From contig JAYWIR010000136.1 of NCBI GenBank assembly GCA_036172245.1, forward strand, positions 55,045-75,044: a stretch of DNA of 20,000 nt. Direction: 5' to 3'. The notes beneath the pieces were generated by a model. It made no database searches. It was not told where the DNA came from and was given only the letters and a program-made list of their open reading frames with translations. Numbering within the stretch: position 1 is the stretch's first letter; every line of letters begins with the position of its first letter. The translations under genes were made by a program, and so were the position numbers. Source of the stretch: Raillietiella orientalis. Its lineage: Eukaryota. Below are positions 1,265 to 20,000 of this stretch, in pieces.

Positions 1265-1474
1265 GTCATCACTCGGGTACGCCCGGGGCGTTTACTAATA
1301 AACTTTACATGCGTGGTACAAGGCCCCACCACGGCCGTAAACACAGGACCTGTCGGGACATCGGGACGCAGCTTGGCGTGGCACTTCCCGACAGCGAAAG
1401 GGGATGAGGGGAAAAACAAAAAGAAAAATAAAGAAATAAAAAAAACAAAAAAAGTTTGGAGGGCAGGGTAGGGA

Positions 1475-4123: not shown

Positions 4124-4783
4124 GTCGGCACTGCTGGTGTTGCATTGGGGGCTTCCTTGCAACCCCCGCCGACACCACTGGACGAAAAGGGGTGTCAACC
4201 CTAATTGTGTCAGCTGCGGGAGAGAGAATACCTCCTCAACCAGTTAGTGGATTGTGTTGCCCTCCGTCGCTTGTGGGAACGCTTTGCCGCAGCCCTGGGG
4301 ATCCCCGGAGGCAACCCCTGAGACGCTTTGCGCCCCTTCTTCGTCCGTGACGCCCTGCCTCCAGCGGCCTCGCTTGCAGCCTTGTGCTGCCTACGCGGGA
4401 TCGTCGTGGCATGGAGCAAAGCGACGGGAGGATCCAGCGACGGGGATGCCAGCGTGTATGCCGCCCGTTTCCTCAGGATGGCGACGCGATGGCCCCATCT
4501 GGAACCACACAAGCAGAAACAGCTTGCCGGCATCCTCCAGAGGATGACGGACCGTACCAGCAGACTGTGATCCCTTCCCGATCATTCCCTGATTTTTGTT
4601 TATTTTTTGTTTTCTTTTTGTTTCGTTCCCCCTCCCCTCTGCTGCCGAGGTCGACCGCGCCGGTCTGCGCACCGGTAGCCCGGCAGGCTATATCTTTCCA
4701 GGGCGTGGCAGGACTACTGGTCCAGTCACAGATTGTATAGGTTTATTCCTGAGAGTAAACGTCCCGGCGCACCAGGGTTTCAA
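4124..4783 (+). mobile_element. LINE copy C: 3' fragment (ORF2 C-terminus plus 3' UTR) of a diverged subfamily
   Basis: SALLVLHWGLPCN...CVSC...RPFFVRDALPPAA is homologous to the B/D2 C-terminus; U-rich UTR; AGTAAA 4754-4759; terminal hairpin. Confidence 0.88.
4125..4570 (+). pseudogene. ORF2 C-terminal (zinc-knuckle) region, copy C, degenerate
   Basis: Homology to B and D2; internal stop near 4319; ends TGA 4568-4570 followed by TCCC, as in B and D2. Confidence 0.85.
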
Positions 4784-6155: not shown

Positions 6156-8194
6156 TCCGGGTCGTCCAGCTTGCTGGACGACCAGGGCCGGGAATGTTCG
6201 TCCCCGGCGTCGGTACGGCATCTCGTGCGGAGTTATTATTTCTCCCTTTACGCCAGGGCGCCCCCGGATCAAGATGCCTCTCGGCTCTTGCTTCCGGATG
6301 GTGCCCCGGCAATAGGGGGGGAGGAGTGGTTAAGCCTCGATGAACCTTTTACCACCGGCGAAATTCTCGCCGGTATCAAAAGGCTCAAGAGGCGGAAAGC
6401 TACAAGGGAAGACGGCCTTCCCGCGGAGTTCTAACAGAGCTTCGCGGAAGAACTGGCACCCCTACTGCTTCAGCTGACAAGGCTGATCCGACACGAAGGC
6501 GATGTTCCCGCCTCGTTTCGGTCAGCGAGAGTGAGGCTCCTTCTGAAAGGGGGAGACCTTAGGAATTTGAACAACTGGCGTCCGATCACGATTGTGAATA
6601 CGGTCGCCAAGTTGGTTGCCGGGCTATTGGCTTCGCGTCTGGGGCAGGTGGCAGAATATATAATTAGCCTGGAGCAGACATATGCTGTTCCCGGGCGAAG
6701 TATGGATGCCAACCTCTTCTTCGCGAGCACATGGATGCACGCCCAGAGGTGTCAAAAGGAAGGGAAAGGAAAAATCGGTAACCCCACTTTAGGGCCGCAA
6801 GCAGGGCAGGGAATGGACTCCCGGGCGGGGAAGGGGGCCTTAGCGCTCGCAGTCGATCTCCATAAGGCGTTCGACTGTTTTGACCAGGGGCTTTTGCTGG
6901 AGCTCCTGGTTCGCATGGGCTTCCCACCCTCCTTGATTACCTACCTGCGCTCTTGCTGGCGGAATGCGATTATCACCATCTTTTTCAGTAGTCAGAAGGT
7001 GTATGGCATGCCGTTGCGGCGAGGCATCAGGCAGGGAGATAGCCTTAGTCCCCTGCTCTACAGAACCTACTTTGAGTTGGTGCTGAGAGCCTACAGAGTG
7101 ACTTTGGCCTCCTTGCCGAGATCGTGTCCCGGCACGCCCGCCGTAGAAGCCTTTGCCAACGACCTTCTGCTCCTGTCACCTATGTCCACCCCGGCTTCGG
7201 TGGTCGAGAAGTTCTTCGATCTGCTCAGCCGTGGGACCGGACTGCAGGTCAACAGGGCGAAGTCGTCGGTGGTGCCAGTAGGTGCGGCGTGGGCAGGGCA
7301 GCAGGACTGGGTCCGTCTGGGGATCCCCACGGCGAGGTGCCTCAGGTACCTTGGTGTGCCGTTGGGTGACTACTCCCCTGCGGAAGCGTGGTCCAGCTGT
7401 CTTCAAAAAGTCGAGACGGCGATCGGCCCGTTCCTGGAAGGCAAGTTTCACTTGCCGGAACGGGCCGCGGTTTGGGACGCCTTCGCGGCCCCCATCCTCC
7501 GCCCCTTGCTTTTTGTTTGCCCCGCCCCCAGAGAATGCAAAAAGAGGAAGAAGGACCTCCAGAAGATGGGAAGATGTTAAGCGGCTGGACCACAGGAGAA
7601 CTGGCGGACGCCACGACCCCGAGCGTCCAGCCGCGTGGACTAATGAGATGGGGCGAGCTGCTCGCCATCCCTACGGATGTGCTGAAGTGGCCCCCGGTAC
7701 TAAAGGAATCCAGGATCCTGCCCCTTAAGTGGCAAGAGTCGGCGTTGCTACTTCTGCACTGGGGTTTACCCTGCAACGCACGCCGCTTTCACTGGACAAG
7801 GGGAACTGTGGATCCCGAGTGTGTCAGGTGCGGAGAGCGGGATTCGCTCTCCCACCTTATTGTGGACTGTGCTGCCATTGGACCCCTCTGGGAACGGTTC
7901 GGGGCGACCCTGGGGCTCCCTACGGGCAGCACCCCCAGAGACGTTCTTCGGCCCCTCTTCGTGAAGGACGCACTGCAGCCAGCCGCAGCCATCGCAGCCT
8001 TGTGCTGTGTCCGTGGCATCGTGGCGGCATGGAGCGACGCCAACAAAGAAGGAGTGGGTCCATACGCGAAGGATGTCATCCCATACGCCCAACGCTTCAT
8101 GCGGAGAGCTGCCGGATGGCCTCAACTGGGAAATATACGGTCGGACCTCGAGGGCTTCCTTGAACGAATGGGCCCTCCTCACAGCGGTCAGTGA
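6156..8194 (+). pseudogene. ORF2 RT plus C-terminal CCHC knuckle, copy D2 (inactive)
   Basis: Motifs EDGLPAEF*, NWRPIT, DLHKAFD, GIRQGDSLSP, RYLG and CVRC-x7-H-x4-C. The catalytic YADD has decayed to FAND. Stop at 6432-6434; internal deletion near 7555. Confidence 0.92.
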
Positions 8195-8272
8195 TCCCTT
8201 CCCTGCCCTCCAACTTCTTTTTGTATGTTTATTTTTTTATTTTTCTTTTTGTTTTATCCCCATCCCCCTTCG

Positions 8273-8401
8273 CTGCTGAGGAACGCTACGCTGGGCTGCG
8301 TCCCGGCGTCCCGGCAGGTCCAGTGCATATGGCCGTGAGCGGGGCCTTGTACCGCGGATGTAGAGTTTTTTAAAAATAAACGCCTTGGGCGTACCCGGGT
8401 G
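8273..8401 (+). other. Structured 3'-UTR element (hexaloop hairpin, second hairpin, AATAAA 8375-8380, terminal hairpin 8381-8401)
   Basis: ACGCTGGG-CTGCGT-CCCGGCGT at 8288-8309 inside an outer stem CTGCTG/CGGCAG; equivalents in B, C and E. Confidence 0.7.
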
Positions 8402-8409
8402 TAAACTCA

Positions 8410-8806: not shown

Positions 8807-8970
8807 TGCCGGGAATAGCCTCTCGCCGTCGTCTTGTGAGCGCTTGTTGGAACGTGAACGGGCTAAGCGACGACGGCAAGAGGCGTGACGTAGCCGCCAC
8901 CCTGGCATCCTTCGACCTGGTGCTGCTGCAGAAGATCCACGTGATCTGTGCAGATCAAGCCCGGGAGATT
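8806..8970 (+). pseudogene. ORF2 start (first 55 aa of the APE endonuclease), copy D1
   Basis: MPGIASRRRLVSACWNVNGLSDDGKRRDVAATLASFDLVLLQKIH aligns with the EN of A. Confidence 0.9.
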
Positions 8971-9322
8971 TTCCACCCTGTCACGACGGGGCGTTTATTC
9001 CATATAACATAACGAAAAAAAGCAATTATACAAAATAAACCAATTGGGAACCAAACTCCCAACCGACGACTGAACAAGAATGAAGAGAATATTGCTGGCA
9101 CGGAGGCCAGAGTAACAGTTTCTTGAACGGAGTGGGGGGGCGGGAAACACAAAGAAACCAAAATAAATTGAAAACAATGAATAAGGAGGACGGGATAAGG
9201 GTCTTTGGGATCGCTCTGGAAGACACGGGGATAAAACCATGGGCACCGGAAATTTAACCGAGCGAACGGGGACGGGGTATGGGTGGACGAGAGGTCGCAG
9301 GGGTCACCGGATTACGCCGTAC

Positions 9323-13100: not shown

Positions 13101-13283
13101 CCTGCCGAGTCGGTGAACTTGCTTCGCGGCTCAAAGTATTGTGCGCTCGACAACTTAATCAGTTAATTGTGCTCGTGTGTGCCCGGAGAGAGGAATTTTT
13201 AAAAACGAAACTACAAAAGAAGCGCCGAGGAGATCGCGGCAAAAGACCTGCAGTGGTCCCGTGCAACAAGACCAGCTGCCAGG

Positions 13284-15069
13284 ATGCAGGCGCCTCGAGA
13301 AGGAGTGTATAGACCGTCCTTCCCCATGGAAGCCATGGAGGTGACGTGCGGCAACGGCTAGACGGTGGCAGGCATGCCGAGGATCGCGCCCGCGGCGTGC
13401 TTTGCTGCGCCGGCGGCGGCGATTCAAGGGTCGTGCCCGCGGCGACGACGGCGGAGGTCGTGCGCACGGCGGCGACGCCGAGGCTCGTGTTCGCGGCGGG
13501 TAAGGTCGCACCTGCGGCGGCGATGCCGAGGGTGCCGCCCGCGGTGGCAACGGTGGCGACGTCGAGGGTTGCGCTCGGAGCGGCGGCGTCCCAGGCAGGA
13601 CCCGCGGGCGTCCACGCGGTTCAGGGCGAGACGCCATCTTGTTCGGCTGCGGCGGCGCAGCCCTTTTCCTATGCGTCGGTGGCGGCTGGACAAGCGAGTG
13701 TCCACCCACCAAGAAAATTCGCGAAACCTCTATGCGGTAAAGTCCAAAAGGTGGATCGGCCGATCGTGGAGTTAGGGCCGAATGTGAAGCCCATCATTTT
13801 CAGGACTTAGCTGATCAAGTTCAGTAATATCAGGGAGGTGTATCTGTCCCTCGATAAGACGGATATCAATTTTGATCGCATACAGGCGATCATACCGGCA
13901 AATAACGGGTTCACAGTCTTCACAGACTGTGAAAATATTAGAGAGCGCTTGCTCCAGAAGGGGATCAATATACAAGGGAGGATGGTTTGTGGTGTTGACG
14001 AGATGCCATACACAACCGTGTTTCTGAACGGCATCTCCATCCTCATACCGCAACTAACGGTGTGGAACTTTTAGGAGCAGTATGGGGAAGTTGTGGACCT
14101 TGAATTCCAGAACTTCTCTGGAAATATATTTTCAGGCGACATGATCGCCAAAATGAAGTTGAAAGAGGGAGCTGTGATCCCTAAATTAGCCGTTCTTGAC
14201 GAACAATCCCTGGGAGTGAACGTGCGTTACCGGCAACAGCAGATATTCTGCACCGGGTGTAACAGTTCGGCCACAGGGCCGGCGCTTGCCCAACGAGTCG
14301 TTGTTTCCGCTGCGGCAAAGTAGGACATCAAGTCCGAAACTGCCCGCAGCCGGAGGTGTGCTCCTTCTGCAAGAAACACGGACATGCCAAATGGAGCTGT
14401 CCGGAGTTTGCAAACTGCAGAAGGATTCGAGGTCTCTCTCCTGTGAGAGAGAGAAACATCAAGGAGGCCAAACATCCTTAGAAGGCAGGAAGGCAGAAAA
14501 AAGTGAAGGAAGCCGTCCCGGTGTCGGCAAATGGCTTCATAGAAGTGGGAAAGAAGGTAAAGAGGGGGATGCTCGTCAAGGAGCAAGAAACTCCTCAAAT
14601 CCTGGAAGCAGCAGAGCATGAAGGCGAGAAGATAGAGGTAGCGCTGAAAGGCGCGAAGGAAGAGAGGCAAGAAGCCACTAAAGTGTCGCAGGAGGCTCTG
14701 CAGACTACGGAGGAGTTGGCAACACGGGCGGAAAAGATCATGGAGGTGCAGAGCGGTCCTCAGCAAGAGAAAATCTTGCAGAAGATCTGCACTGCACAAG
14801 AGAACATCAACCAGGTGGCGGAGGTCGCTGAACGCGAGAAGTTAGAGGAACAGCTTCTCGACGTGAAGGCGAACTTCTGCGGCAAGTTCGAGATAGAGGC
14901 GCTATCTCGAAAATTGATCGCGCAGGCGGAACACTTTACGGTGGAGGCGGAAATTACCGACCTCACAGGTACGGAGAGTGACGCCGGCAGCAAGAAGACC
15001 GCTGCTTCTTCATTGTCTCGGAGAGCACACTCTCTCAGACAGAAGAAGCTCAGGAAAGCCAAAGAATAG
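13284..15069 (+). pseudogene. ORF1 (Ala/Pro-rich N-terminus, SYASVAA motif, three CCHC knuckles, Glu/Lys-rich probable coiled-coil tail), copy G
   Basis: Knuckles CTGC..FGHRAGAC (frameshifted), CFRCGKVGHQVRNC and CSFCKKHGHAKWSC; several TAG stops; ends TAG 15067-15069. The start ATG (13284 or 13326) is uncertain. Confidence 0.87.
13374..13590 (+). repeat. Degenerate coding repeats (PRxxPAA-like units) in the ORF1 N-terminus; also at about 19011-19230 in H
   Basis: Recurring ccgaggg/atcgtgcccgcggcg-like units encoding PRIAPAA, PRLVFAA, PRVPPAV and SRVALGA. Confidence 0.65.
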
Positions 15070-15082
15070 GTCTTCCCCTTTT

Positions 15083-18000
15083 ATGGCCTCTTCCCTATCA
15101 ACCGCCAGGAGGATGAACATCGCCTCCTGGAACGTAAACGGTGTGTTCGACCAGGGAAAAAGAAGAAGGATTGTGCGGACCATCGCACAACAAGACATCG
15201 TGTGCCTGCAGGAGACCCACAGGATGGGTCTGGAGATAAGCCAGAGAATGGAACGGCGATTCAACGGGCAGATGGTCGTCAACGAATCAGAACGGAACAC
15301 GAAAAGTGTGGCGGTGCTAATAAAGAAGCACTTAGCCCTCACTATTCTGGGAGTGTTCTGTCCCCAACCCGGACGAATCATCGGCGTGCGACTGGCCTGT
15401 TTCGCGACTGTTCACCTTATCCTGGTGAACGTGTACGGGCCGCACAGGCTAAAACACCGTTGTGCGGAGGCGCTGCATGCAACACTCCGGCAAAAGGTCG
15501 CCCCTAAGGACGTCGTGATTGTTGCTTTCGATCTCAACATCTTGGATGAGATCATTCATTCGGAAGACGCCAGAGGAAGGACGGCGTATCGACGGCTATC
15601 CGAGGAGTTCGGACTGGTCTGGCGAACAGCAATCCACAAGCCAATCGATCACGTCCTGCACAGCACCGAACTTGGGAACCGCATCCAGGGGTTGCGCGAC
15701 ACTATGACTACGGTGTCCGATCACCCCCTGGTGCGGTTTTCCCTAAGAACGGAGAATCCTCGGCGGAGAAAAGGCACCAGGGCAGCGCTCATCAGCATGC
15801 CCGCCTGGTTCGAAACCCATCCCGGACATCAGGCTGTCCTGGAGGCGAATCTGAGGGCAACAACAATCCGAAGAGTCGCCAACTGGGACAGCCTGAAACA
15901 CAGGATACACCTGTTTGCGAACATGGAGTTCGGGGATAGGCGCTTGAGGCAAGAGGCGTACCGGGAGCTGAACATCCAAGATCGCTCCCTCTCAAAGTAC
16001 TTCGATCAGTACGAGAGTCTGTACTTTCTCAATAACATAAAAGGAGAAGTCGGCGTGCTGGAGAAGAGAAATCTGGCAACAGATATCTCCTGCATCCAAT
16101 ACGACGGCCAAAAGCGACAGTCGTCTGAGGACATCGTGGATGCCTTTCACAGGCATTACACGAAACACTTCAGGCGACAACAGCTGTGCCGCTCTAGTCA
16201 ACAGGCCTTCTTGAGCTATCTCCTGAAGAGGACCGACGACCTCCAGCGGAACAGACTGGAGGAAGAGTTCTCCGAAGAAGAGGTGAAGACTGCGTTTGGG
16301 CAACTTCGCAAGGACGTGGCAGCGGGCATTGACAGTGTACCCATCACGCACTATCAGCGGTAACTGCACGCCTACCTGCGCTTGTTCCACCAGTTGACCC
16401 TCTGCATCGGGGAAGAAGGCAGACTACCTCAGTCCTTCTACGAGAGTCGGATGAGATTGCTGAAGAAAGGAGGCGACTCTACCCAGATCGCCCAATGGAG
16501 GCCAATCCGGATTCTAAACTCCGATGCCAAGTGGTTGGCGAAGATCTGGTCTAACCGCTTAGGCAAGGTCATGTCGAGGCGGATCTCTCCGGTCCAGACA
16601 TGTGCAGTCCCAGGACGACACATGTCGGACAATGTGAAGTGTGCCCAGGCCACTGTTGGACTCAGTCGATACGTCGGCGAGAACCTTGTGCTGGTGTTCA
16701 CTGACATGGAGAAGGCCTTCGACTCCATCGACCAAGGGATGCTGCTGAAGGTTCTGGAGAAGATAGGGCTTCCGGAACACTTCAGCAACTTCGTGAGGGC
16801 GGTACTCCAGAACCAGTACTGCCGGATCAAGATCAACGGCCAGGAGACGGCAGCAATCAGGATGGAACGAGGAGTCCGACAGGGCGACTCGCTAAGTCCG
16901 ATGCTGTTCGTCATCTATATGGAGGCGTTGTCGTCCTTTATCGAGAAGAGCGGACTACTAAGCGGGATTACCATCGATAGCCAGCGTCTTACCCATCTGG
17001 CATACGCCGATGATCTAGTCTTCTTCATCAAGGGAGACAAAAATCAGCGTGCGTTTCTGGGTGTGGCGGCCCTGATGGAACAGGGCTTGGGCTTAAAAAT
17101 CAATTTCCAGAAGAGCCAGATTTTGCCCGTCGGAATACTGGATCTCTCCACTCTAACGGGTAGTGGATTCCGTACAGTGGACACGGCCAAGTAACTGGGA
17201 GTCTACATCGGCGACGGCTCTGCGTCGAAGCTGCTGTGGAAGGAAATCCTTAGGAAAACGGCCAAGGAAGCAGCAAAGTACACCCGAACGGACCTTGGGA
17301 TGAAGCGAAAGGCCAACATATGAAACGGAGTACTCCTTCCGAAAGTGCTCTTCGGGGCGGCCTTCGCGAGAATGAACAAGGACACTACTAGGGAGTTCGA
17401 CAAGCTGCAATGAAGAACACTCTGGGGCCACTATCGCCCAAGAGTAAGACTGAAACCCCTGTGTCGTCCCAGGGAAGAAGGCGGATCCGATATGAAGTCG
17501 CTTGCACATTCCATGGAAATCATGGATACGCGACACATCCTGGACATTGCCACTTACTGGGATGACTGGCCGTATGCGGCGCACAGGGCCTACGCGTTGT
17601 TGCTTAACAACTCGAAAGGCCTGATGACTGCGCTGCTAGGCAAAGTAGGGGAATGGATAACAATCGACCCGACCTGGAGGAGGAAGCAACGGCTGGTGCG
17701 GAAGCACCAAATCAAGATCGTACCGCGAAGCAGGGAACTCTGGCAGGACGGGTCCATCCTGGTGATCCCTTGGTTGCTTCCTGTCCCGCCGGACACGAGA
17801 AGCTGGATCTACCAGCGGACCAGAGTTACCCTACTGCAAATCCAGGAGTAAAGGCGAGGAGGCTACCTACATCAAACACGTATACTTCGGTATCCAGAGA
17901 TGATGTTAGGAAGGTTTACCCACAGGAACCGCGAAGTGTGGTTCAACTACAACGACTTCGCATGGTCAAGGGTAACCAGAACAAACCTCCGAAGGCTTAT

Positions 18001-18601
18001 CCAAGAAAACGACCATGACACCAGTGCCCTTTAAGAAGCCACCGAATGCTACGGAAGTGAACGGTTCAACCTGTTAGCGATCGGAACGACGCTCTGGAGG
18101 AGTGACCTTCCGCCGGGCACCCAGGATGACCTCCTGATGTTTTATCACGGAGGAATCCAGATTGGGTCCCGATTGCAGCACTTCACAGGAAGACGGGAAG
18201 ACCGAGACTGCGCAGCATGTGGAGACGACGACACGAGACTTCACCTCTTGACGTGTCCCACACTGCTGCATGACTGGCTGATCCTCAAAAAAATCATCGG
18301 ACTTACGAACAGATCCGTATTGGAGATCCTCGCCGGGATGTTTCAGGGGGATGGAAATGTTCCCTGTTACAATCCCATGGTGAGGACGACCATAGCCCTC
18401 TCCATCACCGCCATACTTGTGCGGTGGTGGAAAATGAGGAAAGCCAGGAGAGCCGCACCACCGATGGAGATCCTGCAAGGGCTCTCGAAGAGGGAAATCG
18501 GCATCAGGAACTGCAGGAAGATCCACGCCTGGACGTACAGATTCATCCTGAAGAGTATCCAGGACGACGCCCGGGACCATCCAGCTGGAATTCCTCCCTG
18601 A
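15083..18601 (+). pseudogene. ORF2 (APE endonuclease, RT, CCHC), copy G, with multiple stops
   Basis: Motifs SWNVNG, LQETH, NVYGP, IDH, SDHP, AGIDSVP, WRPI, DMEKAFD, GVRQGDSLSP, YADD, K*LG and CAAC-x7-H-x3-C. Stops include 16361-16363 and 17192-17194. Confidence 0.94.
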
Positions 18602-18735
18602 AAAGCAGAACTCTAGTGCAACCCAAGGACCCCCAAGTGCAAAATGTTTGTATTGAGTTAATGAGAGTGCGAATGTAAATTTTGTGTTTTTATATAAAAA
18701 TAAACTTACCCCACCGCTTGTGGGACTTGGGGAAA

Positions 18736-20000
18736 CCTGCCGAGTCGGTGAACTTGCTCTGCGGCTCAAAGTATTGTGCGCTTGACAAAGAAATCAGTTA
18801 ATTGTGCTCGTGTGTGCTTAGAGAGGGGAAGTTTTCCAGACGAAACTAAAAAAAAGAAGCCGCGAGGAGATCGCGGCAAAAGACCTGCAGTGGTCCCGTG
18901 CAGCAAGACCAGCTGCCAGGATGCAGGCACCTAGAGGAAGAATGGAGAGACCGTCGCCCCCCATGAAAGCCATGGAGGTAACGTGCGGCAACGGCGAGGC
19001 GGTGGCAGGCATACCGAAGATCGCGCCCGCCGCGGGCTTTGTGCGCCAGCGGCGGAGATGCCAAGGGTCGTGCCCGCGGCGACGACGGCGGAGGTCATGC
19101 TCGCGGCGGCAACGCCGAGGATCGTGCCCGCGGCGGGGAAGGTCGCGCCTGCGGCGGCGATGCCGAGGGTGCCGCCCGCGGCGGCAACGGTGGCGACGTC
19201 GAGGGTTGCGCTCGCGGCGGCGGCGTCCCAGGCAGGACCCGCGGGCGTCCACGCAGTTCAGGGCGAGACGCCATCTTGTTCGGCTGCGGCGGCGCAGCCC
19301 TTTTCCTATGCGTCGGTGGCGGCTGGACATGCGAGTGTCCACCCACCAAGAAAATTCGGGAAGCCGATATGCGGTAAAGTCCAAAAGGTGGATCGCCCGA
19401 TCGTGGAGTGAGGGTCGAATGTGAAGCCCATCATTTTCAAGACTGGGCTGATCAAGTTCAGTAATATCAGGGAGGTGTATCTGTCCCTCGATAAGACGGA
19501 TATCAATTTTGATCGCATACAGACGATCATACCGGCAAATAACGGGTTCACAGTCTTCACAGACTGTGAAAATATTAGAGAGCGATTGATCCAGAAGGGG
19601 ATCAACATACAAAAGAGGATAATTTGTGGTATTGGCGAAATGCCATACACAACCGTCTTTCTGAACGGCATCTCTATCCTCACACCGCAACTAACGATGT
19701 GGAACTTTTTGGAGCAGCATGGGGAAGTTCTGGACCTTGATTTCAAGAACTTCTCTAAAAATATATTTTCTGGCGACATGATCGCCAAAATGAAATTGAA
19801 AGAGGGAGCTGTGATCCCTGGAATAGCCGTTCTTGACGAACAATCCCAGGGAGTGAACGTGCGTCACCGGCAACAGCCGATATTCTCCACCGAGTGCAAG
19901 CAGTTCGGCCACAGGGCCGGCGCTTGCCCGACGTGTCGTTTTTTCCGCTGCGGAAAAGTAGGACATCAAGTCCGAAACTGCCCGCAGCCGGAGGTGTGCT
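18736..20000 (+). mobile_element. LINE copy H: tandem head-to-tail sibling of G (5' UTR plus ORF1 start), runs off the window
   Basis: Collinear with 13101-14361, roughly 90% identical by eye (5 differences in one sampled 60-bp line); starts with the same CCTGCCGAGTCGGTGAACTTGC. Confidence 0.93.
18921..20000 (+). pseudogene. ORF1 N-terminal part, copy H (frameshift, stop, decayed knuckles)
   Basis: Homologous to G ORF1; TGA 19409-19411; the first Cys of the knuckles is altered (STECKQFGHRAGAC, FFRCGKVGHQVRNC). Confidence 0.87.

Follow-up and report, generated by a model that had tools for sequence, protein, structure and literature searches.

A 3'-UTR hairpin with a CUGCGN loop is under selection in L1/Tx1-like LINEs that end without poly(A)

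Introduction

What is the role of a hairpin that recurs in the 3' UTRs of several diverged LINE copies at one locus, and is it the signal by which reverse transcriptase (RT) recognizes the element's RNA? [quoted passage not shown] Those of UnaL2 and ZfL2 are established (PMC4176376), while for SART1 and R1 the accuracy of the start has been tied to poly(A) or to pairing with the target (PMC7265360). The initial annotation of this DNA, which proposed an RT-recognition element, set such stringent LINEs against a poly(A)-dependent L1. This contrast was overstated, as a 3' hairpin has already been proposed, from compensatory changes, for the monocot 1a lineage of the L1 clade (LINE1-1_ZM, ZmSINE2/3; Ohshima 2012, PMC3472496), and five of 15 green-algal L1 families are described there as having no 3' repeat (PMC3472496). 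The L1 group shifts between stringent recognition of RNA, by structure, and relaxed recognition, by poly(A), and the L1 clade provides few examples of these shifts.

The window, that is, the whole stretch of 20,000 nt analysed here, holds nested copies of non-LTR retrotransposons and lies on a 75-kb contig, from a eukaryotic assembly of 210 Mb. The results listed by a literature search, with subscription journals and Repbase outside its scope, include no description of the hairpin motif.

Materials and Methods

Relatives were collected within the same genome through DNA and pattern searches and by fetching sequences directly. The 272 termini obtained were grouped into 102 clusters at 82% identity, the largest of which was split by tail into D2-like and B-like sets. 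Sixteen clusters without a U tract were dropped, followed by six of the remaining 87 that were duplicated or in which the region was missing, leaving 81 representatives. Most of these are copies that are single and decayed. The terminal motif served as the anchor for every one, which inflates its conservation in the set. The representatives were aligned with MAFFT on sequence only (alignment A2). Covariation was scored against a home-made, R-scape-like null of 60 tree simulations, and joint changes were counted on an independent tree of ORF2 codons covering 62 of the 81 representatives. For genome counts the degenerate pattern CYGRNCTGCGNNYCRG was used, with both positions that close the loop left free.

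LINE copies in the window

The reading frames of the window encode an APE endonuclease (PF03372) and an RT (PF00078). Copies B, D and E share 61-76% identity in RT, and the RT of family F, whose ORF1 has a zinc knuckle, is 30-34% identical to theirs. The nearest named RT relatives are fish and amphibian proteins at about 28-32% identity, none of which carries a Tx1 label. Since L1/Tx1-type LINEs are marked by an ORF1, an ORF2 with APE and RT, and target site duplications, all of which are present, we read the elements as L1/Tx1-like, an assignment made from anatomy and not from a tree with reference elements. They resemble LINEs of the Tx1 group, including Tx1-Mar, in having two ORFs, APE and RT domains and a site preference within mobile elements (PMC4494074); Tx1-Mar itself is described as preferring another transposon as its target (PMC4494074). 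They are unlike the target-specific Tx1 LINEs in that their targets are sibling LINEs and their ends lack poly(A).

An intact tail runs, in order, from the stop codon through a U tract, a C tract, a first hairpin (H1), a variable hairpin (H2), AATAAA and a further hairpin (H3) to five final bases. In copy D2, the RT domain lies in a frame at 6435-7580, upstream of the open frame for the C-terminal part of ORF2 (7370..8194, + strand), whose translation contains a CX2CX7HX4C motif and whose stop opens the 3' UTR. A U-rich then C-rich tract (8213..8270, +) precedes H1. The third hairpin of D2, H2 (8334..8356, +), lies between H1 and AATAAA; it varies with lineage and its covariation was not significant.

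The H1 hairpin in single copies and in subfamilies

H1 of D2 occupies 8273..8317 (+), with an outer stem (8273-8278/8312-8317), an internal loop and an inner stem (8291-8295/8302-8306) capped by the loop CUGCGU (8296-8301) on a G-C closing pair. Copy C has H1 at 4642..4686 (+), where a U-A pair closes the loop CUGCGC (inner hairpin 4660-4675). On the - strand are H1 of copy B (1350..1394; inner hairpin 1376-1361), which carries private mutations, and the inner hairpin of copy E (9095..9110), where a C-G pair closes the loop CUCCGU. On recheck, the positions first given for the hairpins of D2, C, B and E were all correct.

The loop had been given as CU(G/C)CG(U/C). However, 24 of 28 copies of the E subfamily read CTGCGT and one reads CTCCGT, and position 6 varies, being U in 39, C in 16, A in 12 and G in 8 of 75 hexaloops. 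The consensus is CUGCGN. Likewise, the decayed inner stem reported for B is real in this copy but is not a property of its subfamily, which has CCGGG/CCCGG in 18 of 24 copies and CCAAG in one. Both CUCCGU in E and the decay of the stem in B are changes private to one copy. Within the D2 subfamily, U-G is fixed in 25 of 29 copies.

Covariation of the outer stem, also claimed, survives as one real compensation, between B (CTGTCG/CGACAG) and C (CTGCCG/CGGCAG). Neither of the two outer pairs tested on the ORF2 tree had an excess of joint changes (0.5 and 1.0, versus 1.4 and 1.5 expected), and the CAAGAA arm quoted for E is not its subfamily's main form (5' arm CACAAA in 15/28, CAAGAA in 10/28).

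Individually, the four H1 copies fold no better than shuffled sequences (z = -0.55, -0.62, -1.56 and -0.67). When whole UTRs were folded, the mean pair probability of the inner stem was at least 0.5 in 8 of 18 scored representatives, with two of the low values probably mislocated; low pairing in these folds arises because the repeated CCGG arms permit other registers. The 3' arm is missing in two representatives, and five of the 81, in one subclade, have pentaloops. The loops of this subclade (L124, L126, L161 and L183) read UCCGC, AUAGC, ACGGA, UUAGA and CUUGC, retaining the penultimate G, and provide a natural test set for co-evolution of loop and protein.

Covariation and conservation of H1

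The sole structure predicted by RNAalifold for alignment A2 was the 5-bp inner stem. Its closing pair (CG 33, UA 30, GC 4, UG 1, unpaired 12, gap 1; n = 81) ranked top of 11,781 column pairs, with E about 0.05, and no other pair was significant. On the ORF2 tree the closing pair showed 6.6 joint changes, 5.3 of them from one Watson-Crick pair to another, against 1.0 expected, so that C-G, U-A and G-C were swapped jointly about five times. A second inner pair had four joint changes versus 1.5 expected (p about 0.03), and the three further inner pairs had no clear excess on this tree. G-U is tolerated (pair 42-60 of A2 is GU 22, AU 20 and GC 15) or fixed, which favours pairing on the sense-strand RNA.

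The genome holds 3,373 matches to the degenerate pattern, versus 86 for the reversed control. Among the first 100 matches listed, counted by hand and including copies that are not independent, the closing positions were Watson-Crick in 88 (C-G 51, T-A 31, G-C 6), G-U in 6 and unpaired in 6. For pairs of representatives below 45% amino acid identity, nucleotide identity is 0.69 at loop positions 1-5 and 0.62 in the inner stem, compared with 0.43 at fourfold-degenerate ORF2 sites and 0.33-0.44 in spacers; loop position 6 stands at 0.30.

The proposal of a covarying inner stem around a conserved loop is thus borne out by an independent tree and by a loop that, at positions 1-5, changes less than fourfold-degenerate sites. 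The absence of covariation, or a loop no better conserved than the flanking UTR, had been named in advance as grounds for abandoning the hairpin, and neither was found for the inner hairpin. As in stringent LINEs, there is a conserved 3'-UTR stem-loop with compensatory changes, these lying in the inner stem, the outer stem not being significant. The H1 inner stem and loop letters 1-5 are under selection as a sense-strand RNA hairpin.

A fixed 3' end beyond H3

The elements end in AATAAA, then CCCGG-N4-6-CCGGG-T (H3), then a subfamily-specific tail of 5 nt, without poly(A). The terminal element of D2 spans 8375..8405 (+), with AATAAA at 8375-8380, H3, bearing two private changes, up to 8400, and the tail GTAAA at 8401-8405; target DNA begins at about 8406, with no poly(A). 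The corresponding elements are at 4754..4783 (+; tail TTCAA) in C, at 1266..1296 (-; GATGA, the subfamily's commonest form being GATAA) in B and at 8970..8999 (-; GGAAA, subfamily form GAGAA) in E. The H3 terminal motif has 2,315 exact matches in the genome and none for the control. In 29 of the 272 termini the base after the tail begins 10-17 bp that recur exactly upstream, most of the others having their 5' ends outside the sequence examined, and empty sites in sibling LINEs match from the base right after the 5-nt tail. The elements therefore terminate at a fixed point 6 nt beyond H3, with target duplications of 10-17 bp. The distance from H1 to this end ranges over 89-184 nt (quartiles 110/118/128).

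Two ideas about the tail were tried and rejected. A poly(A) remnant would suit the 246 of 272 termini with AA at tail positions 4-5, but 10 termini end in AT (GGCAT in seven), and in two AT-ending termini a 13-bp duplication directly follows the tail; the tail is thus at least partly encoded. Tails ending in GGCAT instead of NNNAA occur at L121:7878(-), L146, L177, L193 and L208. An RNA-templated guide reaching past the 5-nt tail was discarded because the junction tracks host variants from position 6, with no overwriting seen. Read-through RNA may still pair with the primer, a step that would be invisible at the junction.

Subfamilies have specific short target motifs, and the same site in sibling LINEs is hit repeatedly, often in antisense, across host subfamilies; E is inserted at ATCTC in the endonuclease region and another subfamily at TCGAA in the codons for RT KAFD. 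Repeated-target junctions lie at 1266, 4783, 8405 and 8970 of the window and at loci L001-L138, some of them perhaps segmental duplications.

Family F provides a comparison. It stands here as two tandem copies sharing a target site (13101-18735 and 18736-20000), and its 3' end (18699..18735, +) has AATAAA, the hairpin CCCAC-CGCTT-GTGGG (18710-18724) and an 11-nt tail without poly(A). Family F ends with AATAAA, CCCAC-N5-GTGGG and a fixed tail, and H1 is absent from all six of its tails found. The terminal hairpin of family F is a possible homologue of H3, in which case two of its pairs would be compensated.

Distribution of H1

Forty H1 matches were chosen for the lack of an exact H3. In 26 of them H3 is present at up to 4 mismatches (reversed-sequence null at least 6), and on visual inspection no more than one or two of the 40 fall outside a LINE UTR context. 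A scan of the window against Rfam gave no match at E up to 1. A compound tail pattern matched no metagenome stretch, in a collection that may omit near relatives, and a protein scan of metagenomes, with near relatives perhaps again outside the collection, gave seven loci at 29-39% identity, none with a match to the H1 model. H1 is so far known from this one genome.

No SINE family with H1 was found, a single candidate having been examined. This candidate, the tRNA-headed L178:748-960, was rejected: among 40 scored matches its one full-length match is itself, and it is a short 5'-truncated LINE that lies, flanked by a 10-bp duplication, within a tRNA-like repeat. The A and B boxes of that repeat were identified by eye; ARAGORN gives no call.

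What H1 may do

The explanation that we favour, at a probability of about one half, is that H1 is a cis-acting hairpin of the sense RNA, gripped by a protein for ribonucleoprotein (RNP) formation and template selection, while H3 sets the start. An element-encoded protein, ORF2p or ORF1p, would grip the CUGCGN loop, which might be folded as a pseudo-triloop with a C1-G5 pair, a UGC triloop and a flipped-out N6. Protein-bound H1 would then lead to assembly of the RNP and choice of the element's own RNA, and H3 would fix where target-primed reverse transcription begins; in this division of labour H1 would select and H3 would register. The variable spacing between H1 and the end, together with the H1-less but hairpin-ended family F, makes a handle likelier than a start-site signal. 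Of the RT-recognition element initially proposed, what stands is a selected sense RNA hairpin in an L1/Tx1-type 3' UTR; the RT-recognition role stays a conjecture, in view of the fixed end after H3, a hairpin which had been missed, the 89-184 nt spacing and a family that does without H1. Several findings count against the favoured explanation: the loop is common to subfamilies whose ORF2 C-termini are less than 45% identical and whose targets differ; the one SINE candidate examined was rejected; pentaloops occur in one subclade and two representatives lack the 3' arm; a single pair gets to E about 0.05, under a home-made null; the inner stem is well paired in only 8 of 18 whole-UTR folds; and C1 does not covary with G5, while the commonest closing pair is C-G.

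The first of these findings would be natural if a host RNA-binding protein bound H1 in the stability, export, localization, 3' processing or translation control of LINE RNA, an explanation that is the main alternative and that we consider possible but on the whole unlikely. The loops of ZfL2-1 and ZfL2-2 are family-specific, whereas that of H1 crosses subfamilies, which would equally suit a host factor. H1 also adjoins the U-rich tract, about 80 nt upstream of AATAAA, and pseudo-triloops are described as general motifs of protein recognition, with a common factor suggested for the foamy virus and HBV loops (PMC3884659). However, H1 matches fall nearly all in LINE tails, host RNAs on the sampled contig seem not to make use of H1, and the unrelated pentaloops of one subclade fit co-evolution with a protein of the element more readily. 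H1 also fails the features of the iron-responsive element (IRE). Like the IRE, it has an upper stem of 5 bp under a C1-G5 hexaloop (PMC8466369), but its triad is UGC (55 of 75 hexaloops) instead of AGU, the Rfam scan gave no match, and the bulged C is absent, the column below the 5-bp stem being G or A that pairs with U or C.

It is improbable that H1 is itself the signal that positions initiation, in the manner of UnaL2 and ZfL2, which was the strong form of the original proposal. A conserved loop, a variable stem and an internal loop 5-6 bp below are indeed described for stringent LINEs (PMC5135761), but H1 lies at a varying distance from an end that is exact to the base, family F ends just as precisely without it, and a far more conserved hairpin stands 6 nt from the end. 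Whereas in stringent LINEs the stem-loop sits at the 3' tip by the initiation site, the tip here is occupied by H3.

Action of the motif as DNA, whether as a protein-binding palindrome, a 3'-UTR promoter for nested neighbours or a cDNA hairpin, is very improbable. The CCGG arms are self-complementary, so that the motif repeats in direct as well as inverted orientation, and the elements are nested in one another; but the closing pair changes jointly, A-U/U-A swaps occur in the arms, and fixed G-U pairs point to sense RNA. Least credible is a functionless, inherited GC-rich sequence with covariation produced by common ancestry and CpG decay. The folding z-scores carry no signal, some U-A swaps are at CpG sites and the outer stem has no excess covariation, but this reading is largely refuted by a closing pair that in most subfamilies lies outside CpG sites, that has a double transversion (G-C) among its changes and that switches recurrently on the ORF2 tree, and by a loop better conserved than fourfold-degenerate sites and spacers.

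Comparison with known hairpins

As in monocot 1a, an L1-clade LINE here keeps a 3' hairpin whose stem changes are compensated and whose loop letters are conserved (PMC3472496). The monocot hairpin is described as lying in the last 45-50 nt, with the loop UCU, and as common to SINEs (PMC3472496); H1 differs in its 89-184 nt from the end, its CUGCGN loop, the lack of a SINE partner found and the presence of H3 at the tip. With the tail stem-loops of ZfL2-1, ZfL2-2 and UnaL2 (L2 clade), H1 shares a kept loop, an exchangeable stem, an internal loop below and proposed binding by the element's protein, the ZfL2 loop being reported as recognized by ORF2p (PMC4176376). Those stem-loops are family-specific, were tested by mutation and binding, and precede terminal repeats (PMC4176376), whereas H1 is known from sequence alone, crosses subfamilies and belongs to elements without a terminal repeat or poly(A).

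The H1 loop would fit, by analogy, the pseudo-triloop motif known from foamy virus and from HBV epsilon. In a foamy-virus construct a pseudo-triloop was proven by NMR, with a CG cross pair, a UGC triloop, a U bulge and a GC closing pair (PMC3884659), and the apical loop CUGUGC of HBV epsilon is reported to bind reverse transcriptase (PMC1636360). All three have a C1...G5 hexaloop with a free sixth base (PMC3884659). The 5' hairpin of human foamy virus, as described, even spells the D2/B loop, G-CUGCGU-C (PMC3884659), although chance or convergence could account for a likeness of 8 letters and we claim no homology. In H1, C1 and G5 are able to pair in most hexaloops (C-G in 56 of 75, U-G in 2, U-A in 1), with C-A in 9, likely from CpG decay; C1-G5 is retained in six of 10 loops with an altered core, and covariation of C1 with G5 among the 75 is absent beyond the one U-A copy. 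The stability rules given for pseudo-triloops are a G-C closing pair and a pyrimidine at position 6, with functional exceptions noted (PMC3884659), and a C-G closing pair abolished the pseudo-triloop signal of the HBV loop (PMC3884659). Both features are present in D2 and B, and 55 of 75 hexaloops have the pyrimidine, but G-C closes only four of the 81 H1 representatives, C-G being commonest (33/81). The search for pseudo-triloop together with retrotransposon found nothing in the literature covered.

A more specific proposal, of a two-part RNA code in this L1/Tx1-like clade without poly(A), in which a pseudo-triloop of the foamy-virus/HBV-epsilon type would act as protein handle and H3 would fix the first copied base, is at this stage doubtful. 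If true, a non-LTR retrotransposon would carry a pseudo-triloop signal, and initiation that is precise and independent of poly(A) could be studied in a tractable L1-group model; H1 alone is the expected sort of signal. Dozens of natural variants of the three-hairpin tail exist in the clade, with base-exact, poly(A)-free ends and subfamily-specific targets, and with these variants the roles of individual hairpins are separable by swaps.

Other features of the tail

At H3, positions 128-137, the first and ninth bases after AATAAA, covary between C-G, U-A and A-U. They form the second-ranked pair (E about 2), with seven joint changes versus 2.5 expected and a predicted pairing of at most 0.23. 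This hints at an alternative mini-hairpin or a pseudoknot, with the confounding factor that both sites are CpG. In many subfamilies a GUUUAUU-like sequence just 5' of AATAAA (e.g. 4741-4760) is predicted to pair with AAUAAAC, and such pairing could bury the polyadenylation signal, with a bearing on read-through transcription.
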